A stretch of DNA of 64,000 bases, from assembly GCA_030427255.1 (NCBI GenBank), contig JAUHWY010000018.1, forward strand, positions 2,359 through 66,358. The letters are read 5' to 3'. The stretch is from Bacteroidia bacterium (GTDB lineage Bacteria > Bacteroidota > Bacteroidia > CAIKAF01). Of the stretch, positions 2,563 through 64,000 are shown piece by piece (positions within the stretch are counted from its first letter, which is position 1; every line of letters starts with the position of its first letter). A program made the translations under genes and the position numbers. The notes under the pieces were generated by a model. That model did not search any database and was not told the DNA's origin. It saw only the letters and a list, made by a program, of their open reading frames with translations.

Positions 2563-3601
2563 GGTAAACACAGTTATTTCAGGCCTAACATTAAAGCGAA
2601 TCGGCCAACTGCAACCCAATGCGCGGTTAATGTATACCCGTTTTTTATCGTCCACCTCAATATCGCCGCAGCTGTATTTTTTATTTTTTACCGGCAATAT
2701 AGGTGCTTCTAAGAAGGGCGCTTTGCATTGCCCCCCGTGGGTGTGCCCGGCCAACACATATCCTCTGTACGCACCCCAACCCGGCAAATCGCAGGCATCC
2801 GGGTTGTGGCAAAGCACCACTCCCGGGCCATCAAAATCGTAGCGGCTAAAAGTTTTTTGAATGTCCCATTGCTTGGCCCACAAGTCATCTGCACCGGCAA
2901 TTTGTAAGCCATGAACCTCCACTTGCTCGTTGCGGAGCATCTGCACTCCTTGGTTTTCCAGGATATTTTTGATGTGCTGTGCAACAGACCCCTGCGCCCA
3001 ATTTTTACCATAATCGTGGTTTCCAAGGATGCCTAGGGTAGCCATAGAACCGAAAAGTCCATGGCGCATCACCTCTTGCAATTGGCTGAATTGTTCCTGG
3101 TTTTCATAACTGACAAAATCACCGGTATATTCTGAGGCCGTTGACGCGTTGTGTTTTCAAGGCGAATTAAGGCACGGTCAAATTGAAAGTCCGCAGTTTA
3201 CTGATTGTAAATGAGGAACTTGAGATTTGGCCGTAACGCAAAGTCGCCGCCAGAATAGCAACGCGTCAACGGTCTCATACTACTAGTTCCGGTGCATAAG
3301 CCCTAGCCTTTTGCATGGACTCCATCAAATAGGAGTAAGGAAAGCGGTTGCCCACGTGCATATCGCTGATTTGGATAAGGCGTTTACCTCCCAAGGCTTT
3401 GGGAAGACCATGAATGGGCAATGGGCGCTCTACAAATTCCAAACGGTAGGGCGCCACTTTCCATGCATAAATGCCCAGGCCCAAGCTCATGCCTCCGGCG
3501 GCCCACATGCTTTTTTTTAAGAAGGAACGTCGGTTCATGGCACATGAACGGAGGCTGGGGAGGAGTGGTATGCAAGAACTGTTAAGAATCCTTGAATACA
3601 T
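2548..3601 (-). pseudogene. Calcineurin-like metallophosphoesterase with Tat-type signal, interrupted by a 145-bp insertion element
   Basis: The N-terminal ORF 3275..3601 carries a Tat-type signal (RRSFLK) and ends ...ISDMHV...YAPELVV*. The C-terminal ORF 2548..3081 has GNHDYG and GHTHGGQ. The conserved D-L-V-V-x-T-G-D motif is split: ELVV ends at 3278 and TGDFVSY resumes at 3126. The in-frame sequence between them contains stops. Confidence 0.6.
3133..3277. mobile_element. MITE-like insertion, about 145 bp, with 15-16-bp terminal inverted repeats (GGCCGTTGACGCGTTG ... CAACGCGTCAACGGTC)
   Basis: Near-perfect terminal inverted repeats at 3136-3151 and 3260-3275. It lies exactly within the conserved phosphoesterase motif. 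A diverged partial copy sits at 47148-47222. Confidence 0.6.
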
Positions 3602-3742
3602 AAGTAAGAAATGACAGAAGCAAAGAGACTTACAGCGGTCTTTCGGAAATATTGAGCATATACACTGCTTGAAAGATTTATTGAAAGCTTGGTGCCTTTG
3701 CTCCGGGTAGATTCTCTAACTTGCTTCGCAAAGTTAAATCAC

Positions 3743-4990
3743 ATGCGCAACTTTATTTTCGCTATTCTTCTGGTTTGTATTGGCCTTAGCACCTCAGCTC
3801 AAGGGGTTTTGATTGGAGACACGGCCCAGCCGCCGCATCCTGATGCCCTGCTCGAACTGCGCGGTTCAAGAGCCCTTTTGATGCCTCGGCTCAACACCAC
3901 CCAACGAAACGCCCTGCAAAATCCGGTACCCGGCATGCAGATTTACCATATTGACGACCAATGCGTCGAAGTGTATTTTCCCAGTCAAGGCTGGAGCGAC
4001 GTGGCCTGCGACTGCCCCAATCCCCCCTCGGCCGGTTTTAGCTTTAGCCCCAGCAGCCCAAACCTGAATCAATCGGTGACTTTCACTCCCGCCTCCGGTG
4101 GACTTAATTACCAATGGACCTTTGCCTCAGGAACTCCGGCAAGTTCAAACGCATCAAGCCCTCAAGTGAGCTGGACTCAAGCCGGCAACTACAATGTGCA
4201 ATTGGTGGTTACCGACAACACCGGCTGCACCGACACCAGCAACCAAAGCGTAACTGTGAACGCCTGCAACCCACAATCCGGTAACCAGACCTTCAACTAT
4301 ACCGGCAGCATGCAAACCTTTACCGTACCTGCCTGCATTACCAATTTGCAGGTAACCTTGTATGGAGCGGAGGGCGGTCAGCGCAACAGCCAGCCCGGTG
4401 GCCAAGGCGGCATGGTGAGCGGCGATTTGGCCGTAAGCCCGGGGCAGTTGGTTTATGTATATGTGGGTGGCCGAGGTGCCAATCAGCAAACCGCCGGTTG
4501 GAACGGTGGCGGCATTGGCGATTTTCAAGCCGGTGGCGAAGCCGGCGGCGGCGGCGGTGCTTCTGACCTGCGGCTGAATGGAACCAACCTTTCCGACCGA
4601 GTAGCGGTGGCTGGCGGCGGTGGCGGTTCCGGTTGGAATCGCGCCGGAGGACAAGGCGGCGGATCTACCGGCGGCGCGGGCCAGGGTCCTTACCCCGGAC
4701 AGGGAGGAACCCAAAGCGCAGGCGGTGCCCAGGGAGTAGATTTGTGCAATAACCAAACTTCAGCCCCGGGCATATTGGGCCAAGGTGGCAATGGAGCCAG
4801 TGGCGGTTGTGGTTCCGGCGGCGGAGGCGGCGGTGGCGGTGGCTACTACGGCGGCGGCGGTGGGGGCACCAACAACCCGGACTTAGGCTCCGGCGGCGGT
4901 GGCGGCTCCAATTATACCGGTGGACTCACCAATGCCAGCGGCAGCAGTGGCGTGCGCAGCGGAGACGGACAGATTTTGATTTCTTGGTAA
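3743..4990 (+). CDS. Secreted PKD-domain protein with a long glycine-rich C-terminal region (paralog of 51531..52829)
   Basis: Signal peptide MRNFIFAILLVCIGLSTSAQG. Conserved N-terminal module (ALLELRGS..LMPRLNTTQRNAL..GMQIYHIDDQCVEVY). PKD-like segment (NYQWTFASGTP...VQLVVTDNTGCTD). The TFTVPAC...GAEGG block is followed by G-rich repeats including GGGGGGGGGYYGGGGGG. The C-terminus is GDGQILISW. The ORF listed from 3689 probably starts at the Met at 3743. Confidence 0.7.
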   Translation: MRNFIFAILLVCIGLSTSAQGVLIGDTAQPPHPDALLELRGSRALLMPRLNTTQRNALQNPVPGMQIYHIDDQCVEVYFPSQGWSDVACDCPNPPSAGFSFSPSSPNLNQSVTFTPASGGLNYQWTFASGTPASSNASSPQVSWTQAGNYNVQLVVTDNTGCTDTSNQSVTVNACNPQSGNQTFNYTGSMQTFTVPACITNLQVTLYGAEGGQRNSQPGGQGGMVSGDLAVSPGQLVYVYVGGRGANQQTAGWNGGGIGDFQAGGEAGGGGGASDLRLNGTNLSDRVAVAGGGGGSGWNRAGGQGGGSTGGAGQGPYPGQGGTQSAGGAQGVDLCNNQTSAPGILGQGGNGASGGCGSGGGGGGGGGYYGGGGGGTNNPDLGSGGGGGSNYTGGLTNASGSSGVRSGDGQILISW

Positions 4991-5180
4991 GATTTTTTGG
5001 GCGGCTCATCCCGCCCTCCCTGCAAGTCCTTGCCCCCAAGGCAGGTGCGGCTAGGTGGTACGTGGGCTCTCCCTGAACTAAGGGAAAGCCTCCGCCCACC
5101 AAGCCGCAGCCTGCCTTGGTTGCTCCGGGCTTTCCGTTCGGTCGGGGCCGCAGATCTCCTTCCAGAAGGGTAGGTTTGCC
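4991..5180. repeat. GC-rich long imperfect palindromic element (core-type repeat)
   Basis: TTTTTT-GGGCGG hairpin start. Long inverted repeat CCAAGGCAGGTGCGGCTAGGTGG ... CCACCAAGCCGCAGCCTGCCTTGG. It shares CTGCAAGTCCT and GCTCCGGGCTTTCCG...GGCCGCAGA blocks with the element at 38527. Confidence 0.6.
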
Positions 5181-5259
5181 TATTCTAAAAATGGAGTCGT
5201 GTTAACCTTAAGTGGTGCATTTCGAGATAAATTCCTATTTTTGAGAAACTTTAACCGCC

Positions 5260-5838
5260 ATGAGAATTCTGGAAATTGTACTGATTGCTTTAGGTATTTT
5301 GGCCTTTACCTTTAAGCTTACCGACATACCTGGTGGAAACGTTTTATTAAATTTTGCCCTGTCGAGCCTTGCAGTGCTGCACTTTGGACTTGGCTTTGCC
5401 TTGTTTTCGGGCGTCCGATTTCGAGAGCTGATTAAGAAGGGGAGAAAGTCAATCAAAGTAAGGCCTTATGTGGTCTTAATGCAATTTGGACTGGGAGTAT
5501 TGCATTTAGGCCTGCTTTTTACTTTAATGTTTTGGCCTAATGCGGGTTTTCAACTTAAAATGGGGTTGGTGTTATCTTTGGGTGCCTTGGTTTGGGTAGG
5601 CATTGTGTCCTTCAAGCAGTTCGACCGTACTGCCAAGCTAAACCTTGTTCGTTTGGTGTTTTTCTTAGCGTTAAGTATTCCCTTGGCTTTTACCTCCGAC
5701 GACCAATTGGTGGAAATGTATTATGGCCATGACCCGGAGTATGCAGAAATAATCAAAGCTCAAATAAAGGATTCCAACAATCCCATACATTTTGAGCGAA
5801 TGGATTCTTTGCGGAGGGCGAGAGGCATGCAGCCTTAA
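5260..5838 (+). CDS. Hypothetical multi-pass membrane protein
   Basis: 192-aa ORF with about four hydrophobic helices. No recognisable motif. Confidence 0.45.
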   Translation: MRILEIVLIALGILAFTFKLTDIPGGNVLLNFALSSLAVLHFGLGFALFSGVRFRELIKKGRKSIKVRPYVVLMQFGLGVLHLGLLFTLMFWPNAGFQLKMGLVLSLGALVWVGIVSFKQFDRTAKLNLVRLVFFLALSIPLAFTSDDQLVEMYYGHDPEYAEIIKAQIKDSNNPIHFERMDSLRRARGMQP

Positions 5839-5960
5839 ACGGATTCGCCACCCAAAGCAAGCCAATGGTAAAAGAAAGCCGCGGAAATAATGGTTTTAAC
5901 CCGTTGGTTTTTTAATTTCCCCCTTCAAAATAGGCTCCACAGGGTCTTAAAAAGTGTGTA

Positions 5961-7049
5961 ATGCGTACCCTCGTTTTATTGTTGATATTGATTCATGGGC
6001 TCATCCATGGCTTAGGTTTTGTTAAAGGCTTCGGCTTGGCCGAAATCAAAGCATTAAGTACGCCTATTTCAAAGCCCATGGCTCTTTTGTGGCTTTTGAC
6101 TTTGTTCCTTTTTTTAGGCTTCGTCTTTTTGTATTGGAAGTCCATGCCGCAGGCTTGGATGGTGGGATTGGCCGCATTGGTTTTGTCGCAGGTATTGGTG
6201 TTTTGGTTTTGGAAGGACGCTAAGTTTGGTTCCATTCCTAACCTGCTTGTGGCTTTTCTTTGTTTGGTGCAATGGGGACAACTTAGGTTTCACCGAATGG
6301 TGGAACAAGATCAAAATGCCCTCATTCAGGCCACCCATGCCTCCGAATTAGATCCTATTGAATATATCGATGTAGGAGAGCTTCCTCAAGCCGTGCAGTG
6401 TTGGTTAAACACCAGTGGGGCCATGCAGAAGCCTATGCCCAAACGCATTCGAATTCAACAAAAGGCCAGCATGCAAATGAAGCCGGGCCAAAAGCAATGG
6501 ATGGATGCCCGGGCCATTCAAATAAGCAGCTTGAATCCTCCAGGATTTGTTTGGTCGGTTAGGGCCTCTCTTTTTCCCGGAGTTTCTGTTTTGGGCAGAG
6601 ACCGGTTTACGCAAGGAAAGGGCGAAATGCTCATACAATTGAACGGCCTCTTTTCTGTGGTGAATGCGCGTGGTCCCAAACTGGATCAGGGAAGCCTGCA
6701 GCGGTATTTGGGTGAAATTGTATGGTATCCTAAAATGGCTTTGAGTCCTTATATCCGTTGGTATGAAGTTGACGAAAATAAAGCAGAGGCCGAGCTAAGT
6801 TTTGGTGGAACAACGGGCAAAGGAACCTTTCATTTTGGGGCAGACGGAGCGGTAGAAAAATTTGAAGCCATGCGGTATCAAGGCAATGCGGAGGATGCCC
6901 AATTGCTCCTTTGGGAAATAAAGGTATTGGAGCATAAAGAATTTGAAGGAGTTAGAATCCCATCCAAAATGGAGTCTACCTGGCATAACCCGGAGGGGCC
7001 TTGGACTTGGTTGAAGCTAGAAGTTGTAGACTTGCGTTACCAAGAATAG
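5961..7049 (+). CDS. Hypothetical membrane-anchored protein (N-terminal 4 TM, C-terminal soluble domain of unknown function)
   Basis: 362-aa ORF. The N-terminus is hydrophobic and the C-terminal roughly 230-aa domain is hydrophilic. No family recognised. Confidence 0.45.
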   Translation: MRTLVLLLILIHGLIHGLGFVKGFGLAEIKALSTPISKPMALLWLLTLFLFLGFVFLYWKSMPQAWMVGLAALVLSQVLVFWFWKDAKFGSIPNLLVAFLCLVQWGQLRFHRMVEQDQNALIQATHASELDPIEYIDVGELPQAVQCWLNTSGAMQKPMPKRIRIQQKASMQMKPGQKQWMDARAIQISSLNPPGFVWSVRASLFPGVSVLGRDRFTQGKGEMLIQLNGLFSVVNARGPKLDQGSLQRYLGEIVWYPKMALSPYIRWYEVDENKAEAELSFGGTTGKGTFHFGADGAVEKFEAMRYQGNAEDAQLLLWEIKVLEHKEFEGVRIPSKMESTWHNPEGPWTWLKLEVVDLRYQE

Positions 7050-7101
7050 CCGGAATGAAGTGAAATTTATTTGTTTACCAATGCCTAGTTTTCTTCCCCG
7101 G

Positions 7102-8130
7102 TTAATATTTGAGAATTTTCGCCACCCGAACCAAAAGAATAAGAGCAGGAACTTCTACCAAAGGGCCAACTACACCCACAAAAGCTTGGGGTGATTGGAT
7201 TCCAAACAAAGCGATGGAAACGGCTATGGCCAATTCGAAGTTGTTTCCCGATGCTGTAAAGGCTATGGCCGCATTTTGAGGATATTCGGCGTTTAGCCAT
7301 TTCCCAATGCCAAAGGCCAGGCCAAACATGAGTGAAAAGTACAAAAGCAAGGGTAGCGCAAGGCGCAACACATCCAACGGCAAATCAAATATCACCTCAC
7401 TTTTAAGGGAGAACATCAATACCACCGTAAGCAACAATGCCACTAAGGTAAAAGGCCCAATAAATGGAAGGTATTTTTGCTCAAACCATTCCGGACTTTT
7501 TAATCGACTCCAAAAGGGGCGGCTCAATGCACCCAGAACAAAAGGGATACCCAAGTAAATACCTACGTTTTGGGCCACAAGCTGAATGGGTACGGTTAGT
7601 TGCATGCTTTCGGCTCCCAGCAAAGGCGGAACTAAGGTCAAAAACACCCACGCGTATAGGCTGTAGGCAAATACCTGAAAAAGACTGTTGAGGGCTACCA
7701 AGCCTGCACCCCAGGCATTGCTTCCTCCGGCCAAGTCGTTCCATACCAATACCATGGCAATGCAGCGCGCCAATCCTATTAGCACCAGACCTGAAAAATA
7801 GGCCGGCTCGTTTCTAAAGAAAATCCATGCCAGACCAAACATGAGCAATGGACCTATAACCCAATTGAGCACTAAGGACAACAGCAACAAACGGGGCTGG
7901 TTCATGATTTTGGGCAAGGCCTCATAACGCACTTTGGCCAGCGGTGGATACATCATTATCAGCAGTCCAATGGCCAGTGGAATATTGGTGCCACCCACGC
8001 TCCATACATGAAAGCTTATAACCCATTGAGGAAAGAAGAAACCTAGACCCAAGCCAAACGCCATGGCCAAGAATATCCAAACACTAAGCCCTCGATTTAA
8101 AAGCGAAAGTTGGGGGCCGGAATGCCTCAT
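7102..8130 (-). CDS. acr3: Arsenite efflux transporter, ACR3 family
   Basis: LSLLNRGLSVWIFLAMAFGLGLGFFFP matches the ACR3 N-terminus. There are about 10 TM segments. It is the last gene of the ars operon. The start is probably the Met at 8130 rather than the ORF start at 8163. Confidence 0.8.
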   Translation of the reverse strand: MRHSGPQLSLLNRGLSVWIFLAMAFGLGLGFFFPQWVISFHVWSVGGTNIPLAIGLLIMMYPPLAKVRYEALPKIMNQPRLLLLSLVLNWVIGPLLMFGLAWIFFRNEPAYFSGLVLIGLARCIAMVLVWNDLAGGSNAWGAGLVALNSLFQVFAYSLYAWVFLTLVPPLLGAESMQLTVPIQLVAQNVGIYLGIPFVLGALSRPFWSRLKSPEWFEQKYLPFIGPFTLVALLLTVVLMFSLKSEVIFDLPLDVLRLALPLLLYFSLMFGLAFGIGKWLNAEYPQNAAIAFTASGNNFELAIAVSIALFGIQSPQAFVGVVGPLVEVPALILLVRVAKILKY

Positions 8131-10022: not shown

Positions 10023-10040
10023 AATAAATGAATTCATTTA
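10023..10040. promoter_or_regulatory. Perfect 18-bp palindrome ATAAATGAATTCATTTAT upstream of arsR; putative ArsR operator
   Basis: Seen directly, about 30-50 bp upstream of the arsR start. ArsR/SmtB operators are inverted repeats of this size. Confidence 0.45.
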
Positions 10041-10099
10041 TAACATTGGGCGATTCTTTTTAAGAAATCTATGATAAGGTGGAAGGGCAATGGTGAATG

Positions 10100-10545
10100 A
10101 TGAATGATGAATGATAAATGATAAATGATGAATGATAAATGATGAGGTAAAGACGGGATGCCTCCCGTCTCTCCATGATGATGTAAAGACGGGACATTTC
10201 CCGTCTCCGAATGATGAGGTAAAGACGGGATATCTCCCGTCTCCGAATGATGATGTAAAGACGGGATGCCTCCCGTCTCTCAATGATAAGGTAAAGACGA
10301 GATATCTCCCGTCTCTCCATGATGAGGTAAAGACGGGACATTTCCCGTCTCCGAATGATGATGTAAAGACGGGATGCCTCCCGTCTCTCAATGATAAATG
10401 ATGAGGTAAAGACGGGATGCCTCCCGTCTCTCCATGATAAGGTAAAGACGGGACATTTCCCGTCTCTGAATGATAAGGTAAAGACGGGATGCCTCCCGTC
10501 TCTCAATGATGAGGTAAAGACGGGATGCCTCCCGTCTCTCAATGG
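10100..10545. repeat. AATGATG/AATGATA heptamer array followed by 11 tandem 37-bp hairpin units (AATGATGAGGTAAAGACGGGA-loop-TCCCGTCTCTC)
   Basis: Units read off directly. Each unit has an 8-bp stem AGACGGGA/TCCCGTCT with a variable 4-nt loop (TGCC, CATT, TATC). There are no unique spacers between units. Confidence 0.85.
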
Positions 10546-10639: not shown

Positions 10640-10855
10640 GTGATTCAACCTAGAGTGGAGGGTTTTCAAAGAATGGCCCCCCGGCCAAATGGAGGGCCGT
10701 CCGATGCCGGAAAGCTGCCATGGCGCAGGCGAGGAAGCGGTGCCGATACTTCGGGAAAGCTACCGGAGCCCCGCCATGGCGCTTTCCGGCGAGGAAGACC
10801 GGAGTTAGGGCCGGATAGAATATATGGACATACTACGAAGCAGGGGCCCCAAGGC
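10640..10855. repeat. GC-rich palindromic core element
   Basis: It shares CAAAGAATGGCCCCCCGGCC with 38735. Inverted repeat CCGGAAAGCTGCCATGGCG ... CGCCATGGCGCTTTCCGG. Confidence 0.6.
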
Positions 10856-21477: not shown

Positions 21478-21665
21478 CTTGATTTTTTTTGGGGGGCAAA
21501 CGGGCTGTCAGCTATACGCGCCTGCGGCAACAAGGGGTGGCAGCAACCCAAAGTCGGGGCTTGCTGCGCGCCGCCGCGCCTTTGGGGCTGCCACTCCCTG
21601 TTGCCGCAGCCGGGTGCCGCTTCCATCCCTGCCCCAAAGATTATGCGCTGAAAACTCAATGCCTG
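21478..21665. repeat. GC-rich long imperfect palindromic element
   Basis: T8G6 tract, then inverted repeat CCTGCGGCAACAAGGGGTGGCAGC ... GGGGCTGCCACTCCCTGTTGCCGCAGCC. Confidence 0.6.
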
Positions 21666-24329: not shown

Positions 24330-24525
24330 GAGAGGCATTGCCCTACGGAGCTTAAAGCGCCCCGATGGAGTCGGAAAGCCCGGAAGTTGGAGGCCCGGCT
24401 CGGCTTAGCGGGTGGAGGCTGATTCCATTGGTTTGGAGAAGCCCCCGCACCGCTTAGCCGGCCGTGGCCTCCAGCTGAGGACTTGGAGACGGAAGCGGAA
24501 AAGGCGCCCAAAACTTTAAAATGCA
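24330..24525. repeat. GC-rich long imperfect palindromic element
   Basis: Inverted repeat GGAGGCCCGGCTCGGCTTAGCGGGTGG ... CCGCACCGCTTAGCCGGCCGTGGCCTCC. Confidence 0.55.
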
Positions 24526-38529: not shown

Positions 38530-38890
38530 TGTTTTTTTTGGGCGCCTTTTGGGGCCCTCGCTGCAAGTCCTCGGCTTGGGCGCACGGAGCGCTAAGGCTT
38601 GCGGGGGCTCCGCAAAGCTCCGCCTCCACAGCCCAAGCGCTCCGGCGCCCAAGCCTCCGGGCTTTCCGCATCGGTCCCCGGCGCAGAATCTCTATACTTT
38701 GGTAGACCATCTAAACCTTAGGGTTTAGTACATTCCAAAGAATGGCCCCCCGGCCCGGGTGGACGCCCACGCTGCGGCAGGCCTTAGGTTCGGCCCGGCC
38801 TTACTAGTGGAGCTTTGCGGAACTCAGTAAGGCCGGATTGCCGACCTTAGGCCTGCCGCAGTGAGGCTGGAACCAGGGGCCGATAGATGC
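38527..38890. repeat. Two tandem GC-rich palindromic core elements
   Basis: T8-GGGCGCC start. Inverted repeat GGCTTGGGCGCACGGAGCGCT ... AGCGCTCCGGCGCCCAAGCC. Second module begins CAAAGAATGGCCCCCCGGCC, as at 10667. GTGGAGCTTTGCGGAAC is shared with 52830 and 58290. Confidence 0.6.
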
Positions 38891-51074: not shown

Positions 51075-51480
51075 GAATGATTAATGATTAATGATGAGTG
51101 ATGCAGTAAAGACGCAACATCTTGCGTCTCATGCGTCTCATGCGTCTCAAGCGTCTCATGCCTCCCCTGCGTCTCAAACCGCAGTAAAGACGCAACATCT
51201 TGCGCCTCATTTTTTTGGCCGCCTTATCCTGCTGTCTGCGGTAGTGCCCCGTCTCCGGCCCACGGTCTGCGGCCGCTCCGGGGTCTTCGTTCCTCAGCCT
51301 CCTCGCTTGGCCGCATACCGGGGCCGGAGCCGCGTCAGCTACCTGCTTCCATCAGGGGCGGAGGATTACTAAAACTTTAAGAGAGGGGTGAGGTAAAGAC
51401 GCAATATCTTGCGTCTCAAACCGCAGAAAAGACGCAGTATCTTGCATCTCAAAAGTCTCAACTTGTTTTCAACACCCCAC
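51075..51480. repeat. Composite repeat: heptamer array, GGTAAAGACGCAA-loop-TTGCGTCTCA hairpin units, GC-rich palindromic core, then more hairpin units
   Basis: Read off directly. TGCGTCTCA nonamer repeats. The core has inverted repeat CTCCGGCCCACGGTCTGCGGCC ... GGCCGCATACCGGGGCCGGAG. Confidence 0.8.
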
Positions 51481-51530
51481 GCCCAACCGCTCTTTTGTCC
51501 TTACCTTTATCTTTCAACTTATTTTTCTTT

Positions 51531-52829
51531 ATGAAGTTCCTTTATTTCTTGCTTAGCCTTCTTTGGTCCGCCGGACTTTATGCGCAATCCGTTCGCATTG
51601 CTTCGTCTCCCGGACAGGCCGACCCCAGCGCCGGTTTGGATGTGGATTTTAACGACCGGGGCCTGCTTTTGCCCAGGTTAACCACCACCCAACGCAATGC
51701 CATCGCCAGTCCTGCCGATGGGCTTCAAATATTCAATACCACCAGCCAATGCATGGAAGTCTTTATTTCCAACAGTTGGTTTGCAGTGGCTTGCCCTTGC
51801 CAATATTTTCCCAACGCTCAGTTTTCGTTCTCTCCTTCCAATCCGGGAGCAGGAAATGCGGTGAGTTTTAGTCCCCAGCAATCAGGACTGCAATACCAAT
51901 GGTTGTTTGCCTCCGGTACACCGGCCTCTTCTTCCCAAGCCAACCCTTCCGTTACTTGGGCCAATGCAGGTACTTATTCGGTGGTGCTTCAGGTGACCGA
52001 CAACCAAGGATGCACCGCATCCGATACCCAAAATGTGGTGGTGAGCAGCTGCCCTCCCGGTTCTCAAACCTTTACCGCCAACGGCACGCTAGCCTCGGGT
52101 AGCATTCAAAGTTTTACGGTGCCGGCCTGTGCAACCTCAGTTACGGTAGAAGCCTGGGGCGCACAAGGCGGAAGTACCTCCAACACCAACGGTGGTTTGG
52201 GCGCCTACATCAAAGGCACTTTCTCGGTGTCGGGCGGTGAAGTACTGCGCGTCTTGGTGGGTCAACAAGGCGAAGCCGGCTCTTCTGGTCACGGCAACTG
52301 CGGTGGCGGCGGTGGCGGCTCTTTTGTGACCCGCAGCAACAACCAGCCCATGGTGGTGGCCGGTGGAGGCGGCGGTGCAGGAACCGCTTCCAACATCAGC
52401 ATTCGTACGCCCGATCCGGGACAAACTGGAAACAGCGGAACGGCAGGAAAAGGAAATGGAATGCCCGGCGGCACCGGAGGAAATGGTGCTCCGGGAGTTT
52501 GTTCAAGTTGTGGCGCAACCAATGGAGCCGGTTTGCAGAGCAACAGCCAAGCCTATGGCAGCTCTTATGGAACCTCAGCCATTGCTTTTACCAATGGTGG
52601 AGGAGGGGCTACCTCCAGTAGTGGATACGACGGTGGATTTGGGGGTGGCGGAGCAGGAGCTTTTGGTGCCGGCGGCGGCGGAGGTTATTCCGGTGGAGGT
52701 TCAGGAAACTATTCCGGTACCACGGACAACAGCGGCGGCGGCGGTGGCGGCTCTTTTAATGGAGGCACCAATCCGAGCAATCAAGCCGGAGTGAGGAGTG
52801 GGAATGGGCAAGTAATCATTAGTTGGTAA
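51531..52829 (+). CDS. Secreted PKD-domain/glycine-rich protein (paralog of 3743..4990)
   Basis: Signal peptide MKFLYFLLSLLWSAGLYAQ. Same N-terminal module (GLLLPRLTTTQRNAI...GLQIFNTTSQCMEVF). PKD-like segment. SFTVPACATSVTVEAWGAQGG. G-rich tail ending GNGQVIISW. Confidence 0.7.
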   Translation: MKFLYFLLSLLWSAGLYAQSVRIASSPGQADPSAGLDVDFNDRGLLLPRLTTTQRNAIASPADGLQIFNTTSQCMEVFISNSWFAVACPCQYFPNAQFSFSPSNPGAGNAVSFSPQQSGLQYQWLFASGTPASSSQANPSVTWANAGTYSVVLQVTDNQGCTASDTQNVVVSSCPPGSQTFTANGTLASGSIQSFTVPACATSVTVEAWGAQGGSTSNTNGGLGAYIKGTFSVSGGEVLRVLVGQQGEAGSSGHGNCGGGGGGSFVTRSNNQPMVVAGGGGGAGTASNISIRTPDPGQTGNSGTAGKGNGMPGGTGGNGAPGVCSSCGATNGAGLQSNSQAYGSSYGTSAIAFTNGGGGATSSSGYDGGFGGGGAGAFGAGGGGGYSGGGSGNYSGTTDNSGGGGGGSFNGGTNPSNQAGVRSGNGQVIISW

Positions 52830-52985
52830 GACCGGCCAGGGACCGGCACGGAAAGCCCGGATGACGCCGGCGGATGCCAAGGCAGGCCTGCCGCGGTGGA
52901 GCTTTGCGGAACCCCGGCAGAACTAGCCTTGGCTCCGCTGGCGTCACCGGACTTGGAGGGAGGGCCCGGCAGGCCGCCCAATGAA
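52830..52985. repeat. GC-rich palindromic core element
   Basis: Inverted repeat GACGCCGGCGGATGCCAAGGC ... GCCTTGGCTCCGCTGGCGTC. GTGGAGCTTTGCGGAAC is shared with 38800. Confidence 0.6.
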
Positions 52986-55741: not shown

Positions 55742-55805
55742 CCACGGGATATGTTGCGTCTCTGCATGCCAATTATTCCGCGCTGAAGCCTTTGCGCCTC
55801 TAAGA

Positions 55806-55953
55806 CATCGGCATCCGCGCCTGCGCCGTCCAATCCAGCGACCCCTTGGCCCCGCTCCGATATTTCATTAGCCCCGCCATGGCAATCATGGCCGCATTGT
55901 CGGTGCAATAAGCCAATTTGGGGATGTGCAATTCCCAGCCTTTTTGGGTGCAG
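55806..55953. repeat. 147-bp direct repeat copy A: displaced duplicate of the tsaD 3-prime end (putative attL)
   Basis: 143/147 identity with 57112-57262. Read on the minus strand it encodes a TsaD-like C-terminus ending ...QARMPMS* with no upstream coding continuation. Confidence 0.75.
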
Positions 55954-56107
55954 GAATTTTTTAGAAATCTGTATTCAACATGGGTAGCGGTAATTTTATA
56001 ATGTAGAAAACTCTTAGAGAAAGCACAAATGCTATTTAAAACTATAGTTTTGAAACAATTTTAATTTTTTTTCGTATAACCTTTTGTTTTATAAAAAATA
56101 TTAGCGA

Positions 56108-57067
56108 ATGAGAACTGTAAAAGATTACATGTTAAATCCAGAATTATTTGATAATGATAATTTTAATGAAATCGAGGCGTACCATTTTTTCTCAAAAACC
56201 TTAAATAGAGTAAGGCTACCTATTATAAATGTTACTGTAGCAAATAATTTTATTGATAGGCTTAGAAGGTTAGAAGGTGATAAACTTCATACTAGTTTGG
56301 CAGACTATCTTCCGGTGTCTTCAACAAATTATGAGGTTTTAGAAAAAATTTCTGGAGGTAGAGCTAACTTGCCCAGACAATCCGTTTTTTATGGTAGTTT
56401 AAGAACAGAGGAAAATCCTTACAGCCGTATTACTGCTTTAACAGAGGTTTCTGCGAATCATAGGCGTCCAGCAATTAATAAAGTGCAGTTAAAAGACTTA
56501 ACAAGATTTCAAGAAAATGAAGAGAGTAGTAACTTAAAGGATTTTTTTTATTCTTTTTCACGGTGGGAAATTAGGAAGCCATTAGAGCTTGCAGTTGTAA
56601 TGCCTTTTGGGAGTTATGCAAATTCAATGAATAGGCAAATAATGGAGCAGTGTCAGCAAAAATTTAATTCACTTTCCACAAGAGATAAAGAGTTAATAAG
56701 ACTTCTTTCTGACTCATTCTTAAATAATAAAAGTACTCGTTGGAAGTACTATTTTTCTGCATATTACGCAAACTGTTTATATAGGGAATTTGATGGAATT
56801 CTTTACCCGAGTATGCAATCAAACCAAGAAGGGCAAAATATTGTTTTAAGGAGTGATGTAGTTCTAAATAAGTTAAGCTTAGATAAAATAGCTCTTTTAG
56901 AAGAAAGAGTTATAAATGACAATAAAAGCCCTCACACAGTGGTAGATATAATTGGTGTTGGAGATTTTTCGAATGATGATATTTTTTTCTATACATTAAA
57001 GAATGGAGTAATTAGTTCCACAAGAAAATGTTATTGTAAAGACCAATTGAAACAAATGGCGAAATAG
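56108..57067 (+). CDS. Orphan extended RES-domain-like protein on an AT-rich islet (putative NAD+-targeting toxin or defence effector)
   Basis: Arg motif SGGRANLP (GGRxN-like). VFYGSL...ALTEV (Y-x-S...A-L-E). DGILYPSMQSNQEGQNIVL (Ser motif plus N-[IL]-V-L). GC is about 30% against a 50% background. Confidence 0.5.
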   Translation: MRTVKDYMLNPELFDNDNFNEIEAYHFFSKTLNRVRLPIINVTVANNFIDRLRRLEGDKLHTSLADYLPVSSTNYEVLEKISGGRANLPRQSVFYGSLRTEENPYSRITALTEVSANHRRPAINKVQLKDLTRFQENEESSNLKDFFYSFSRWEIRKPLELAVVMPFGSYANSMNRQIMEQCQQKFNSLSTRDKELIRLLSDSFLNNKSTRWKYYFSAYYANCLYREFDGILYPSMQSNQEGQNIVLRSDVVLNKLSLDKIALLEERVINDNKSPHTVVDIIGVGDFSNDDIFFYTLKNGVISSTRKCYCKDQLKQMAK

Positions 57068-57087: not shown

Positions 57088-58125
57088 TTAAGAAACCTTA
57101 TTGGGGTGTATCATCGGCATCCGCGCCTGCGCCGTCCAATCCAGCGACCCCTTAGCCCCGCTCCGATATTTCATTAGCCCCGCCATGGCAATCATAGCCG
57201 CATTGTCGGTGCAATAAGCCAATTTGGGGATGTGCAATTCCCAGCCTTTTTCGGTGCAAGCCTCCAGCAAAAAGCCCCGAAGCCCTTTATTGGCCGATAC
57301 CCCGCCTGCCAGCACCACCCGATGCACGCCCGTGGCCTCAACCGCCTCTTGCAGTCCCTTCCACAAAGTGGCAATAATCGCATCCTGATAATCGCGCGCC
57401 AAATCGGCCAAAGCTTGTCCCTCAGGAACCGCTTCCTGCTTTTGCAAGTACTGATACAAACTGGTTTTTAGTCCCGAAAAACTAAAATGCAGCGGTCCGG
57501 CCTTAGGCACAGGGAAGCGATGATTTCCGGGGCGACCTTGCGCGGCCAAGCGATCGATTTCCGGTCCTCCGGGATAGGGCAGCCCCAGCAATTTGGCGGC
57601 CTTGTCAAAGGCTTCGCCGGCGGCGTCGTCCAGGGTTTGACCGAGCAGTTCCAGACGGGTAGGGGAGTGCACCAGCACCAATTGCGTATGCCCCCCCGAC
57701 ACCGTAAGGCTCAGAAAAGGAAAATCGGGAGGATTTTTGCCGCTGATTTCCGCATCCTCAATAAAATGCGCCAGCACATGCGCTTCCATGTGGTGCACAT
57801 CAATAAGCGGAAGATTCAGCGCCAAGCTAAGTCCCTTGGCAAAGGAGCTGCCCACCAGCAGCGAACCCAGCAAACCGGGACCACGGGTGCAGGCAATCAG
57901 TTCCAAATCCTCCAGACGGCATTGCGCTTGCGCCAGGGCCTGATGCACCACCGGCAGAATGTGGCTCATATGGGCACGGGAGGCCAATTCGGGCACCACG
58001 CCACCGTATTGTCGGTGCACCTCCTGATTGGCGGTGACGTTGGCCAGAACGCGCGAGCCACTAAGCACGGCCGCGGAAGTATCGTCGCAGGAGCTTTCGA
58101 TGCCAAGAATAAGCGGTGGGCGCAT
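57088..58125 (-). CDS. tsaD: tRNA N6-adenosine threonylcarbamoyltransferase TsaD
   Basis: ILGIESSCDDTSAAV N-terminus. Conserved His pair and Kae1/TsaD fold length. The last roughly 150 bp are the copy B repeat, and the final 7 codons lie on the islet side. Confidence 0.85.
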   Translation of the reverse strand: MRPPLILGIESSCDDTSAAVLSGSRVLANVTANQEVHRQYGGVVPELASRAHMSHILPVVHQALAQAQCRLEDLELIACTRGPGLLGSLLVGSSFAKGLSLALNLPLIDVHHMEAHVLAHFIEDAEISGKNPPDFPFLSLTVSGGHTQLVLVHSPTRLELLGQTLDDAAGEAFDKAAKLLGLPYPGGPEIDRLAAQGRPGNHRFPVPKAGPLHFSFSGLKTSLYQYLQKQEAVPEGQALADLARDYQDAIIATLWKGLQEAVEATGVHRVVLAGGVSANKGLRGFLLEACTEKGWELHIPKLAYCTDNAAMIAMAGLMKYRSGAKGSLDWTAQARMPMIHPNKVS

Positions 58126-58146: not shown

Positions 58147-58640
58147 GGAATGATGAATGATGGATGATGAATGATGAGTGATGAATGATGAGGTAAAGAC
58201 GCAACATCTTGCGTCTCATGCGTCTCATGCGTCTCCACCCCCCAGTAACGACGCAACATCTTACGTCTTATGCGTCTCATGCGTCCCAAACGGCGCTTCT
58301 TGGGCCTTCCTTCCATAGGAAACCTAAGTTCCATATCCGCCCCTTTTCATCGGTCAGGCCCCGCCCCAAGCAAGCCGATCTAGGGCTCCGGTGGTTCCGC
58401 AAAGCTACACCTCCTCGCCCAAGTTCGGCTAGCCTGGGTCAGGGCGGCTTACAGCCCTGACCCTAGCGTCAGGGGCCCTCTGTGGGGGGCGGGAGGCGCA
58501 ACAAAAGGGCGTAGTGACGCATTGCCATGCGTCTACAGCAAGAGGGTAGCGACGCAAAATGTTGCATAATGGTGTTGTGGTTTATGGAGACGCAAAGTAT
58601 TGCGTCTTTACATCATTCATCATTAACCATTCATGATTAA
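58147..58640. mobile_element. MITE-like composite element with inverted termini (heptamer array plus GACGCAA hairpin units at both ends, in opposite orientation, flanking a GC-rich palindromic core)
   Basis: Left end 58147-58285 is GAATGATG array then GGTAAAGACGCAACATCTTGCGTCTCA. Right end 58587-58640 is GAGACGCAAAGTATTGCGTCTTTACATCATTCATCATT, the reverse complement of the same module. The core 58286-58560 contains GCTCCGGTGGTTCCGCAAAGCT, the inverted form of a block shared with other cores. Confidence 0.6.
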
Positions 58641-58687
58641 CCATTCCCTATACGTACTTTTGTTCCTTATTCTGCGTTGGGCACCTA

Positions 58688-61600: not shown

Positions 61601-63448
61601 CCTTTGGAAACCATAAAGCCCTTTGCCGGTGATTTATTCAAAAGCCTTTCCGGAAAAGCCTCCGGGCGCTTGTTGGTGAAGGGCAGCGGCGACAATCCCC
61701 AAATCAATGGTGCCCTGTATTTGACCAAGCCTCAAATGAACTTGGCCTTTTTAAACAGCCCCATGAAGCTGGATTTAAAAGGCGAGCCTATTTTGTTTAC
61801 CAGCCATTCCATCATTTTGCCGGACATCCGTATTACCGACAGCAAAGAAGGTTCCGCTCACTTGATTGGTGTATTGTTTCATAGAAACTTCGCCGATTTA
61901 GAAATGCGCCTGAACTTGGACCGGATTAAGAATTTCCAAGCCATGGCCACCACGGTGAAAGACAACGAACAGTTTTACGGCAAGGCCGTGGTAACCAGTC
62001 AAGATCTGGTCCCCAAAGGCAATGGTAGAGCAGTGGAAATCAGCGGTCCTCTCAACGATTTGTACATCAAAGCCAATTTGGAGGTGGGGGCAGGTACGTC
62101 CATCAATCTACCCATATCGGGCGGGGCAACGGCCCAGGAAAACAACTTTGTACGCTTTGTAGACCGCGACAGCATGCAAATCAAAGGCAAGCTTGGCGGA
62201 AATCAAGCCAATGGGGCGGAGGCCGATGAAGGAAACCTTACCATTGAGCTGCATTTGCGCACGACCGCAGATGCGGAATACCGCGTAATTTTTGATGAAA
62301 CCGTGGGCGACGTACTCACCGCAAGAGGCACTTCCGACCATTTGGCCATTACCTTAGACATGAAGGACCGTTTTGAAATGGACGGTACCTTTACCATTGC
62401 CAAGGGCGATTATCTGTTTACCCTTTCCAACCTGGTCAATAAGCCGTTTATCATTAAACCCGGCAGTTTTGTTACCTGGAGCGGAGACCCGCTTGAGGCC
62501 CAAATCAATGCCACGGCCATTCATCCGGCGCGGGCTTCTTTGTATCCTTTGGTATCGCCTTTTACCAGCGATCCTGCTCAAGCCGAACGCTACCGCAGAG
62601 CCAGCAGGATATTTTGCGAACTTAATTTGACCGACCGATTGATTGACCCGCGCATTGGTTTTGGTCTTTCCCTTCCCGACGAGGACGAGAGCACCCGTGC
62701 GTTGGTGCGTTCGGTCATGAATTCGGAAGAAGAGGTCAATCGCCAGGTGTTTTCGCTATTGATCATCAATTCGTTTTTGCCACCGGAGTCCATTGGTTCC
62801 GGAGGTTTGGGCGGTGGTGCCTTGGCGGCCTCAGGTTTGGGAAGCAACTCTTTGAGCTTGTTGAGTGGTCAACTGAACAATTGGTTGGGAAAATTCACCA
62901 AGGATGTGAACATCAATTTGGATTACCAGGCAGGCGAACAAAACCGTGCCGAGCGGGTGATGGTAGGTTTGCAAACTCAGCTGTTCGACAACCGGGTAAT
63001 CATCGATACCGACCTTGGCGTGGGTGGGGGCGATCAAAGTCAAGCCGACAATACCAATACGGTAGTTGGAAACGTAAATGTGGAGGTAAAAGCCACCGAG
63101 GACGGACGTTTGAGGATTCGGGCCTTTAATCGAAGCAACGAATACAACCTGCTTAAAAACAGTGTGCCTTATACCCAAGGGGTGGGCTTGAGTTATCAGC
63201 GAGAGTTTGATGCATGGTCCGATTTGTTTAGGCCATCCAAAACCAAGGACAGCCTAAAGGTTAGACCGCCGGATGGCACCGAAAAGCAAGAAACAGAGCA
63301 ACAACCCGAACTCATCAACGATTCGGATCCGGAATATTTGCAGCAGCAGAAAGGAGCCTTTGATGGAGATGGGAATGCGCCAACGCCGCCTCCAAATCCG
63401 CCGCCATCTAAGGGTATTTTGGTTCCGGATCCTACGGATATGGACTAG
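58688..63448 (+). CDS. tamB: Translocation and assembly module protein TamB (AsmA-like, DUF490 C-terminus)
   Basis: 1586 aa. N-terminal signal-anchor. Long beta-rich repetitive body. Conserved TamB C-terminal domain. Confidence 0.8.
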   Translation: MTSTEAPNPTPAAAPKKGRFFRRVGRIFLGFFLFLLSLLVALQLPFVQSWLGSLAADWLSNKTGHEVRVEALHIDFLDLAVDLKGLYLGDLHGDTLIFAENLHAVLGEVQQERRAIVIDEVALENGGIFLVKYPGESGMNLDTFLARLKPEQPDTLSTAEPWIIEFDKVRLDRASFRLQNPEITGTEAAFQPSDIGLSDISVTVHSFHVRQDTVMMHVDSLVARDKGGAQLRALSGDFLYCKHQLSLEDFSLSTGRSTIRGFMSMSFEDPSAFQHFEEKVDLHAQLALSNVHMGDIAWFAPGLRGLESSFRIRGKIKGQLNNLRAEGLRILFGSVTQLDGRLHLKGLPDIQNTHMDIDLDRMVTNGYDLERIPLPPFPEQRYVQVPAELKRLGVLKFNGHFDGYLRDFNAFGQLQTGLGSASLDVHMVQPAKGLPYYEGFVDLKKFQAGALAGKQLGLGMVSASGEIRGEGFSGEDFFAAFDGGVSLLEINGYTYQGLVVNADVGPGVFTGRVLVDDPNAKLDFNGRIDFSQEKPSFDFIARLSEVDLGRLNVIALDSSSSLSTNIYINASGDEPDNIMGSLRVDNTRFSLGSREYQMDELTLSSELLPEGKTLSLHSDFIDADVDGQYRFVPLFQHLGNQLAAINPSSGLEKVEILDSLPQNFTFSVHLKETAALTDLFVPGLSIHPNSIAYGQYNSAARDIRLNLRSGKVQWKQWELDSWTLRADTRNDSLTVQTRVAHVRMNDSLQLDRFMGRVQWLRDTLVFDLGFSNETAKLNALSLHGTTRLGDSLGLPVELSNSYGYYQDGLWRLQDGAFVLLGADRLAFRDFKVESEQHKLPLLSISGAAGLNEKEKLDISFADFPVALLGEFIPGGGLEPSGNLSGTLSLYRLFSEEMPLMTSNLKIDDLSMNGLALGKLSVDSRFGAEGKVLEIGALLQKDGVDLLKISNSKVRPFEPEQLLDIEANIEGLPLETIKPFAGDLFKSLSGKASGRLLVKGSGDNPQINGALYLTKPQMNLAFLNSPMKLDLKGEPILFTSHSIILPDIRITDSKEGSAHLIGVLFHRNFADLEMRLNLDRIKNFQAMATTVKDNEQFYGKAVVTSQDLVPKGNGRAVEISGPLNDLYIKANLEVGAGTSINLPISGGATAQENNFVRFVDRDSMQIKGKLGGNQANGAEADEGNLTIELHLRTTADAEYRVIFDETVGDVLTARGTSDHLAITLDMKDRFEMDGTFTIAKGDYLFTLSNLVNKPFIIKPGSFVTWSGDPLEAQINATAIHPARASLYPLVSPFTSDPAQAERYRRASRIFCELNLTDRLIDPRIGFGLSLPDEDESTRALVRSVMNSEEEVNRQVFSLLIINSFLPPESIGSGGLGGGALAASGLGSNSLSLLSGQLNNWLGKFTKDVNINLDYQAGEQNRAERVMVGLQTQLFDNRVIIDTDLGVGGGDQSQADNTNTVVGNVNVEVKATEDGRLRIRAFNRSNEYNLLKNSVPYTQGVGLSYQREFDAWSDLFRPSKTKDSLKVRPPDGTEKQETEQQPELINDSDPEYLQQQKGAFDGDGNAPTPPPNPPPSKGILVPDPTDMD

Positions 63449-63840
63449 GGTGAATGATGAATGGTGAATGATGAATGGTGAATGATGAATGATGAATGGT
63501 GAATGATGAATGGTGAATGATGAATGGTGAATGGTGAATGATGAATGGTGAATGATGAATGGTGAATGATGAATGGTGAATGATGAATGGTGAATGATGA
63601 ATGGTGAATGATGAATGATGAATGGTGAATGATGAATGATGAATGATGAATGATTAGGGGTGAGGTAAAGACGCAACATCTTGCGTCTCATTAGGGGTGA
63701 GGTAAAGACGGGGTGCCTCGCGTCTCATTAGGGGTGAGGTAATGACGGGATGCCTCGCGTCTCTTAATGATGAATGGTGTATGGTGAATGATGAATGATT
63801 AGGGATGAGGTAAATACGGGATGCCTCCCGTCTCTTAATG
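63449..63840. repeat. (GAATGATGAATGGT)n 14-bp array of about 15 copies, then mixed GACGCAA-type and GACGGGA-type hairpin units each preceded by TTAGGGGTGAGG
   Basis: Starts on the base after the tamB stop. Both hairpin families occur in one array. Confidence 0.85.
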
Positions 63841-64000
63841 ATGAATGGACTCTGCGTGCCCTTACACCGCGACAGCGGTTTCACGCAAAGTCGCCAAGCC
63901 GCAAAGGGGCGTTTGACGGCGCTATCTATTTCACAAATAGTTCCTTCCGCGCTAAAGCCTTTGCGCCTTCGCGTTTCTGCATGCCAATGCTTCCGCGCTA
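63841..64000. repeat. GC-rich core element, truncated by the window end
   Basis: Shares TTCCGCGCTAAAGCCTTTGCGCC and TCTGCATGCCAAT blocks with 55758-55800. Confidence 0.5.

Follow-up and report, generated by a model that had tools for sequence, protein, structure and literature searches.

Head-to-tail hairpin arrays in an uncultured Bacteroidota lineage are probably REPs cognate to subclass 2.4 TnpA-REP proteins

A 64-kb stretch of a Bacteroidia genome (NCBI GenBank assembly GCA_030427255.1, contig JAUHWY010000018.1, positions 2,359 to 66,358; hereafter the window, with positions counted from its first letter) carries, at four intergenic loci designated A to D, arrays of a short hairpin that lie between runs of a heptamer and long GC-rich hairpins (the cores). 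We consider it probable that the short hairpins are repetitive extragenic palindromes (REPs) cognate to TnpA-REP proteins, or REP-associated tyrosine transposases (RAYTs), of subclass 2.4 (Bertels group 4), that they were amplified as arrays in place, and that the cores are independent of them. The hairpins are a known kind of genomic repeat and not a new system.

The unit of 28 nt reads GTAA-AGACG-xyz-NNNN-x'y'z'-CGTCT, that is, a 4-nt foot followed by an 8-bp stem closed by a 4-nt loop, as in GTAA-AGACGGGA-TGCC-TCCCGTCT, one of the GTAA-footed hairpins of the family. The window contains 17 instances of the pattern AGACG-N10-CGTCT, where shuffles predict 0.01, and 50 of the dimer GAATGATGAATGAT of the heptamer (GAATGAT)n, with at most two mismatches, where 0.48 are expected; 49 of the 50 lie inside the four loci. 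The module order at four loci that a first-pass annotation of the sequence had described is confirmed. That annotation had also claimed two stem variants with identical flanks, and this holds, with GGA/TCC found 11 times and CAA/TTG six times in the window, as does their occurrence side by side in the locus D array (63663-63836), where two chimeric units (GGG/TCG and GGA/TCG) accompany them. The check it had proposed, a covariance model, was built from distinct units and recovers 23 units in the window, all within the same four loci and 22 of them on the + strand, with scores of 27-45 bits on the correct strand and 10-25 bits on the opposite strand.

When one genome per species was scanned for GAGGTAAAGACG-N10-CGTCTC, 60 loci were returned (L-numbers below denote loci in other genomes), and two of the scanned assemblies proved to hold many copies and to be close relatives of the window: JAGYKD01 ("Flavobacteriales bacterium M30B58"), with 87-92% identity across shared genes, and CAZJFM01, with 93-95% identity, which is labelled Competibacteraceae yet clearly belongs to the lineage of the window. 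The covariance model finds 137 REP units in 196 kb of these relatives, at many loci. In more distant Bacteroidota metagenome-assembled genomes (MAGs; L022 from Saprospiraceae, L031 and L002), the foot and outer stem are shared and the inner stems are different. The sequence covered comprises the 64-kb window and ~190 kb (24 loci) of the two related genomes, roughly 260 kb in all.

Across genomes at least nine complementary inner-stem types occur (GGA/TCC, CAA/TTG, GAG/CTC, GAA/TTC, CAT/ATG, CAC/GTG, CCC/GGG, TTG/CAA and TTT/AAA), indicating that pairing matters and the sequence of the inner stem does not. When 55 distinct units, drawn from the window, both relatives and further genomes, were scored against the 8-bp stem, 94.8% of the stem cells were paired, versus 80.6% in shuffles, and 60 cells were changed on both sides, versus 15.6 in shuffles, with none of 500 shuffles reaching 60 and slid controls giving 2-21. 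These double changes are confined to the three inner pairs, the outer five (AGACG/CGTCT) being invariant or nearly so. Mispairs in 151 oriented units are near balance (13 G:T and 9 A:C) and therefore give no strand-specific signal of selection on RNA. The suggestion that selection acts on structure rather than sequence thus stands as far as the covariation of the inner pairs goes, but it is already explained by ordinary REP biology: in most REP families, sub-families differ by alternative, mutually complementary residues in the stem (Di Nocera et al. 2013, PMC3733652, where GTAG- and CGTC-tagged REPs are defined), and TnpA-REP binds the folded single-stranded REP strand-specifically, needs the foot for cleavage, tolerates complementary stem swaps and is impaired in cleavage by a stem mismatch (PMC8266576). 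By analogy with these other TnpA-REP enzymes, we infer that the same recognition mechanism may apply to the present units, in which case a folded single strand would be recognized, its foot and outer stem being read by sequence and its inner stem by shape; a shape-read inner stem would account for sub-families with compensated inner stems.

The assignment to subclass 2.4 comes from the link between this hairpin and RAYT genes. In the classification of Y1 HuH proteins by Quentin et al. (2018; PMC6006769), subclass 2.4 holds TnpA-REP proteins of Cyanobacteria, Bacteroidetes and other phyla, a REP-encoded peptide between the HuH and WQ motifs is its unique trait, and its REPs include GTAGAGACGCACGGCCGTGCGTCTCTAC (Chloroflexus aggregans) and GTAGAGACAAGGCATGCCTTGTCTCTAC (Table S1). 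Both of these have the 4+8+4+8 layout of our unit, and GTAGAGACGCACGGCCGTGCGTCTCTAC also has the same AGACG/CGTCT stem. At L061 4279-4776, a RAYT-type open reading frame (ORF; MPNHIHGII...VETLHATSL...AWQ) matches NF047646, the NCBIfam model of the REP-associated tyrosine transposase, with E=3e-10, under the curated cut-off, and contains GTAGAGACGTTGCATGCAACGTCTTTAC in frame between the HuH and WQ motifs, where it codes for VETLHATSL. Among the 120 best homologues of the L061 protein, the majority have this peptide or RDVACNVST, likewise a translation of the hairpin, between HuH and WQ, and several are of Bacteroidota origin and named RayT by their sources. A second ORF, at L006 2360-2878 (DHLH...WQ...YIDENP; NF047646 E=3e-16, again under the curated cut-off, with a Y1_Tnp match), has as its 3' end the REP GGTAAAGACGCCCTATAGGGCGTCTCTAC, which is followed by four half-site repeats TACGGGCGTCTC. 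In the Bacteroidia MAG of L064, pairs of GTAG-footed AGACG...CGTCT hairpins lie upstream of, within and downstream of a RAYT gene, with two stem variants together (TTT/AAA and TTG/CAA) and inverted pairs present. Because three unrelated genomes (L061, L006 and L064) have this hairpin within or next to a RAYT gene, and because it matches the REPs of Table S1, we take it to be the REP of subclass 2.4 RAYTs. A match to the termini of a known insertion sequence (IS), which the first-pass annotation had named as evidence against itself, was found in spirit rather than to the letter, as the units match the REP class of TnpA-REP proteins that are relatives of IS200/IS605 transposases.

Several observations weigh against this reading. 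A tblastn search of the window and of all loci, with E. coli RayT and the RAYT-type ORFs of L006 and L061 as queries, detected no TnpA-REP gene within the 64 kb of the window or the ~190 kb of the two relatives, the sole weak match in the lineage (L013 207-323) being a translated REP array; a designed 86-aa probe, joining a RAYT core to the REP-encoded peptides of this lineage, retrieved RAYTs, none with those peptides. The foot is GTAA in most units of the lineage and GTAG in a minority (e.g., L038 1214-1242 and L019); GTAG is also found in L064, L063 and L065, and L061 and L006 read GTAG on one strand and GTAA on the other. The A at foot position 4 falls outside the published GT[AG]G consensus, and in the Stenotrophomonas maltophilia system a change at this position (GTAC) abolishes cleavage (PMC8266576). 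Furthermore, the units are almost all head-to-tail, whereas inverted doublets are the mobile unit in REPIN theory, so most copies may owe nothing to transposition; and copy-number differences between metagenomes could in part be assembly collapse. The failure to find the gene, the GTAA foot and the head-to-tail order lower our confidence in current mobilization but leave the hairpin type as classified.

The window is an ordinary stretch of Bacteroidota chromosome, and a Pfam scan of the flanking genes places the four intergenic loci amid ordinary chromosomal genes: an arsR-type regulator, a DUF2911 protein, a STAS protein, PKD-domain proteins, tsaD and tamB. The flanking genes also include relA and fur, and a Por secretion tail is encoded in a relative. 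The parts of the four loci are as follows.

10089-10145, +: heptamer run of locus A, 8 copies
10145-10540, +: REP array of locus A, 11 head-to-tail units, period 36 nt with one 43-nt step
10655-10818, +: A-core, GC-rich long hairpin, -93 kcal/mol
51075-51102, +: heptamer run of locus B, GAATGAT TAATGAT TAATGAT GAGTGAT
51104-51132, +: REP unit B1, covariance model 37.3 bits
51123-51176, +: tandem 9-mers TGCGTCTCA, 6 copies, repeats of the 3' half of the REP stem
51182-51210, +: REP unit B2, one 3'-arm mismatch (TTGCGCCT), 32.9 bits
51216-51377, +: B-core, 162-nt GC-rich long hairpin, a separate dispersed element
51391-51419, +: REP unit B3, CAA/TTG stem, loop TATC, 41.6 bits
51424-51452, +: degenerate REP unit B4, foot GAAA, stem AGACGCAG/TTGCATCT, 16.7 bits
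58148-58191, +: heptamer run of locus C, 6 copies, starting 22 nt from the start codon of tsaD on the opposite strand
58191-58219 and 58243-58271, +: two REP units of locus C, with TGCGTCTCA half-site repeats between and after them
58285-58505, +: C-core, GC-rich hairpin region
58509-58646, mixed strands: right part of locus C, with a degenerate REP (58509-58537, +), an inverted REP (58585-58613, -) and inverted heptamers (58612-58646)
63449-63654, +: heptamer array of locus D, 14.7 copies of a 14-mer, ~29 heptamers, directly after the tamB stop codon
63663-63836, +: four REP units of locus D, namely CAA/TTG, chimeric GGG/TCG and chimeric GGA/TCG, then 5 more heptamers, then GGA/TCC
63845-64000, +: D-core, of another repeat family, cut by the end of the window

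The units of locus A have GGA/TCC stems and loops TGCC, CATT or TATC. In B1 the foot GTAA occupies 51106-51109, and the stem strand AGACGCAA (51110-51117) pairs with TTGCGTCT (51122-51129) around the loop CATC. REP units also lie 3' of the core at loci B and C, the inverted unit at C being one of them, and the right part of locus C forms a 58-nt inverted repeat with 58160-58217. Tandem Repeats Finder delimits arrays at 10089-10544, 51076-51176, 58148-58235 and 63449-63799, with a 36-nt unit repeated 11 times at 10138-10544 and the 9-mer TGCGTCTCA at 51123-51176 and 58210-58235.

The array period of 36 nt equals one heptamer plus one 29-nt REP with its flanks, and occasional 43-nt steps contain one extra heptamer; the heptamer is therefore the spacer of the arrays, and it expands separately at their 5' edge, in the manner of a microsatellite. 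Locus A has 11 units in the window versus 7 in each of the orthologues L017 and L007, and locus D has ~29 heptamers and 4 units versus ~3 heptamers and two parental units in L045; since copy numbers from metagenome assemblies may be collapsed, the exact figures are provisional. The extra units of locus D (63700-63728 and 63737-63765) combine a GGA-type left arm and loop with a hybrid right arm, TCG, and behind the first of them stands the flank that lies downstream of the CAA-type unit. Such chimeras would arise if neighboring units underwent unequal exchange. The array periods, the chimeric units and the copy-number differences between close relatives show growth in place, probably by slippage or unequal recombination. 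As both fit duplication and recombination in place, the structure-templated propagation offered earlier as an alternative is not needed. The arrays illustrate how REPs with a microsatellite spacer can expand head-to-tail, chimeric units included, without transposition.

Some further features of the arrays should be noted. In two unrelated genomes, a complete REP is succeeded by tandem copies of the 3' half-stem alone, TGCGTCTCA in the window (51123-51176 and 58210-58235) and TACGGGCGTCTC in L006 (2887-2940), there directly beside the RAYT-type gene; these half-site repeats could have been left by slippage, or by the hairpin being cut and rejoined repeatedly. Locus A of M30B58 is split by ~9 kb (L033 1585-8000 plus L007 1-2520, contig 3) that are absent from the window (10544/10320); this segment has a REP array on either side, codes for a 1617-aa protein and for another that carries a type IX secretion system (T9SS) sorting tail, and is consistent with a deletion or insertion through recombination between arrays, which in this way mark indels. 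The reverse strand of the arrays is devoid of stop codons and gives spurious ORFs of 117-157 aa (10038-10542 and 63254-63691, both -). Such arrays are therefore a hazard in annotation, and possibly collapse in assemblies.

The GC-rich palindromic core had been treated as one module in the first-pass annotation, and this fails, as the four cores have no detectable similarity to one another. The A-core matches orthologous sites in relatives only, and its 5' motif CAAAGAATGGCCCCCCGGCC is common to the element at 38735-38885; the C-core has only a loop motif, CCGCAAAGCT, in common with other elements. The D-core is part of a repeat of ~117-130 nt that is tandem in L045 (1310-1956) and has a short related copy at 55750-55800; the family contains CTGCATGCCAAT..TTCCGCGCT.AAGCCTTTGCGCC, and a copy follows the fur stop codon in the window. 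The B-core is a discrete element with sharp ends, copies of which lie at non-orthologous sites in L008 (832-992, 96% identity) and L042 (5949-6113, 94%), with a weaker copy at L041 2010-2166. All three high-identity copies adjoin a REP array, in either orientation, the one in L008 being opposite to its neighboring array. The B-core copies are 94-96% identical while the genes of those genomes are ~87-92% identical, a sequence comparison that suggests recent mobility or conversion of the B-core. We conclude that the cores are independent long-hairpin repeat families residing in the same intergenic niches, mostly the 3' ends of genes.

GC-rich hairpins also occur with no REP units nearby, at 4998-5163, 24345-24510, 38539-38695, 38735-38885 and 52822-52980. 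A family among these, designated type 1, comprises the following copies.

Window: 4998-5163 (+), 24345-24510 (-), 38539-38695 (+), 52822-52980 (-)
Relatives: L005 4632-4793, L015 7197-7352, L019 4145-4300, L020 4050-4208
Relatives, continued: L026 3455-3614, L038 4159-4294, L041 4095-4258

Type-1 hairpins are ~160 nt long with a GC content of about 0.61-0.69. Across 11 aligned copies, the base is conserved, TTTGGGCGCC...CAAGTCC pairing with CCGGGCTTTCCG...GGGGCGC, and the apical part is semi-conserved; a stem segment of ~17 bp is wholly different between copies with complementarity kept, and compensatory double changes affect 29 of 37 predicted pairs. By crude ORF calls, 13 of 14 copies closely follow the stop codon of an ORF on the same strand. 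In the metagenome scan the family was found in close relatives only, besides one probable chance match; by a count made by eye, 38539-38695 and its orthologue in L071 share ~95% identity, as against 82.7% for the whole locus. No Rfam family matches the type-1 hairpins. It is possible, though doubtful, that they represent an undescribed, lineage-restricted, high-copy class of structured element, either a new 3'-end RNA element or a non-autonomous mobile element recognized by its shape, and the REP arrays may be sharing their niche. This GC-rich 3'-end family is the single lead that could repay work. Other very stable GC-rich palindromes outside type 1 are found at 21490-21640 and 38735-38885 (about -95 and -99 kcal/mol).

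That heptamers, hairpins and GC-rich core together form one composite that propagates as a unit, possibly by a structure-templated route, seems hardly credible. It would account for the order of heptamers, hairpins and GC-rich hairpin, which recurs at the four loci of the window and in many arrays, indeed the majority, of the two relatives, and for the adjoining hairpin arrays at all three high-identity B-type cores. However, REP arrays and GC-rich hairpins both tend to sit just after stop codons in sense orientation, and this shared placement can explain the recurrent collinear order; rough co-occurrence counts of arrays and GC-rich elements reach weak significance and are confounded by intergenic length. 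The cores of loci A to D are not related to one another, the B-core is sharply bounded and in L008 runs opposite to the array, arrays occur without a GC-rich element (L033, L036 and L023) and many GC-rich elements without units, and in the Saprospiraceae genome (L022) the hairpin sits in a 49-nt tandem unit with neither heptamers nor GC-rich core. As the modules differ independently in distribution, boundaries and orientation, we read the loci as mosaics of co-resident repeats, and the modular composite family of the first-pass annotation resolves into independent repeat families sharing intergenic sites; the unrelated cores and the independent B-core are the grounds for rejecting a single composite mobile element. 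Another possibility, compatible with a REP origin and still unlikely, is that arrays and GC-rich hairpins are mainly 3'-untranslated RNA elements selected by the host as stabilizers of transcript ends or as terminators. A correlation with gene ends, raised in the first-pass annotation, is partly seen: many arrays in relatives start ~1-50 nt from the stop codon of a same-strand ORF, locus D begins directly after that of tamB, the type-1 hairpins have the position described above, REPs lie mostly downstream of coding regions (PMC3733652), and folding predictions give highly stable structures (z-scores of -4.7 and -5.9 at locus B). Yet loci B and C lie between divergently transcribed genes and array A is antisense to both of its neighbors, the mispairs show no strand-specific signal, no U-tract follows the hairpins, and the distance counts rest on crude ORF calls from a caller that placed spurious ORFs inside repeats. 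Nor does an Rfam family match: Rfam 15 at gathering scores has no match in the whole window, and relaxed thresholds give only generic hairpin matches far under gathering scores. A tRNA and tmRNA search of the window found none, and a literature search with the exact sequence GTAGAGACG returned unrelated primer matches only.

It is very unlikely that the units are orphan palindromes with no dedicated transposase, comparable to CGTC-tagged REPs and multiplied by recombination and slippage only. The failure to find a RAYT gene in the ~260 kb covered or by the probe search, the presence of CGTC in every unit and the confinement of nearly all copies to tandem arrays, producible by recombination alone, would agree with this. 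However, the tag of the CGTC super-family is unpaired, with stems starting in A or T and a CCA tail (PMC3733652), whereas here CGTC pairs with GACG within the stem (columns 10-11 and 22-23) and the tails are CTC, CCG or CAT; REPs of the same hairpin type are physically associated with RAYT genes, and the dispersal of the family over many loci in at least three genomes requires some means of dispersal. Least probable of all is that the heptamer tracts are contingency (phase-variation) loci that tune the promoter spacing of tsaD, tamB and the PKD-domain gene. Heptamer copy number does differ strongly between close relatives, and at loci B and C the tracts occupy the promoter region between divergent genes, the one at C beginning 22 nt from the start codon of tsaD, but the largest tract, at locus D, follows a stop codon instead of occupying a promoter, and the tracts always occur with REP units and also serve as the spacer within arrays, pointing to a by-product of array slippage. 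The reading of the units as subclass 2.4 REPs, amplified in place beside independent cores, is thus retained at the strength given above. It adds the uncultured Bacteroidota lineage of the window, JAGYKD01 and CAZJFM01 to the REP-bearing genomes, and it makes the subclass 2.4 REP hairpin, with its fixed foot and outer stem and its free but paired inner stem, common to different phyla.

Other rearrangements were observed near the loci. Direct repeats of 147 nt, 98% identical (55806-55952 and 57112-57258, the second at the 3' end of tsaD), surround the segment 55953-57111, which has low GC (0.31 over 56001-57000) and whose 319-aa product matches the RES domain weakly. The segment resembles an insertion beside tsaD that duplicated the end of the gene. 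In M30B58 the neighbor of tsaD is an RNase P RNA gene (RF00010, 279.5 bits; L038 798-1146), after which comes a pair of REPs, one GTAA-footed and the other GTAG-footed; at this position the window has the heptamer and REP mosaic of locus C (58147-58646), and no RNase P RNA was found in its 64 kb. The region 2518-7102 (~4.6 kb) of the window corresponds to ~0.5 kb in the CAZJFM relative (L017 2855-3364), and holds a GC-rich gene for a glycine-rich PKD-domain protein (3689-4990) and the hairpin at 4998-5163; a paralogous glycine-rich PKD-domain gene at 51495-52829 adjoins locus B.

Among known systems, a CRISPR array was ruled out, as the units abut with a 7-nt repeated spacer at a 36-nt period and there are no unique spacers. 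The subterminal hairpins of IS200/IS605 elements are likewise short, and a Y1 HuH enzyme akin to TnpA-REP recognizes them in folded single-stranded form, but no tnpA or tnpB lies between the hairpins here, and copy number and arrangement are REP-like; IS200/IS605 ends were ruled out by the lack of a Y1 transposase signal in the window and by the ordinary chromosomal genes flanking the loci (Pfam). Heterocystous cyanobacteria, in a phylum that also carries subclass 2.4 RAYTs, have intergenic tandem arrays of a 7-nt unit, the short tandemly repeated repetitive (STRR) sequences, and these differ in sequence from GAATGAT, which here is the spacer of REP arrays. Bacterial interspersed mosaic elements (BIMEs) of E. 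coli have REPs in alternating orientation and defined linker motifs. Like BIMEs and the mosaic elements of Neisseria (NIMEs), our loci are intergenic mosaics of REP-type palindromes among other short repeats in recurrent order, but the linker and companion elements, heptamers and GC-rich long hairpins, are lineage-specific. Neisseria mosaic intergenic regions are mentioned by Di Nocera et al. (PMC3733652), whose CGTC-tagged REPs resemble our units in their 8-bp stem, 4-nt loop, CGTC motif, lack of a transposase nearby and reports from Bacteroidetes. Membership in that super-family is ruled out, as its tag is unpaired at one end whereas here CGTC-GACG is paired in the stem behind a GTAA foot, and the tails are not CCA. 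The REPINs of Pseudomonas fluorescens (Bertels and Rainey 2011; PMC3116915) share with our units the short extragenic palindromes, the compensatory hairpin changes and the occasional tandem arrays of evenly spaced REPs in the same orientation; they are, however, inverted REP doublets, belong to a different RAYT group and are unrelated in sequence. No short-spaced inverted doublet was found in the window, where 22 of 23 units are head-to-tail in the same orientation and the one inverted pair (58191 and 58585) is 369 nt apart. From the published REPs of subclass 2.4 (PMC6006769), the present units differ in their mostly GTAA rather than GT[AG]G foot, in having no 3' second foot (CTAC) of the "double foot" type, in being arranged head to tail in long heptamer-spaced arrays and not as singles or inverted pairs, and in that the cognate gene was not located in the ~260 kb of the lineage covered. 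They share with them the 4-nt foot, the perfect 8-bp stem with AGACG/CGTCT as its outer part, the 4-nt loop, the compensated inner-stem variants, the high intergenic copy number and the presence of the same hairpin in or beside RAYT genes.

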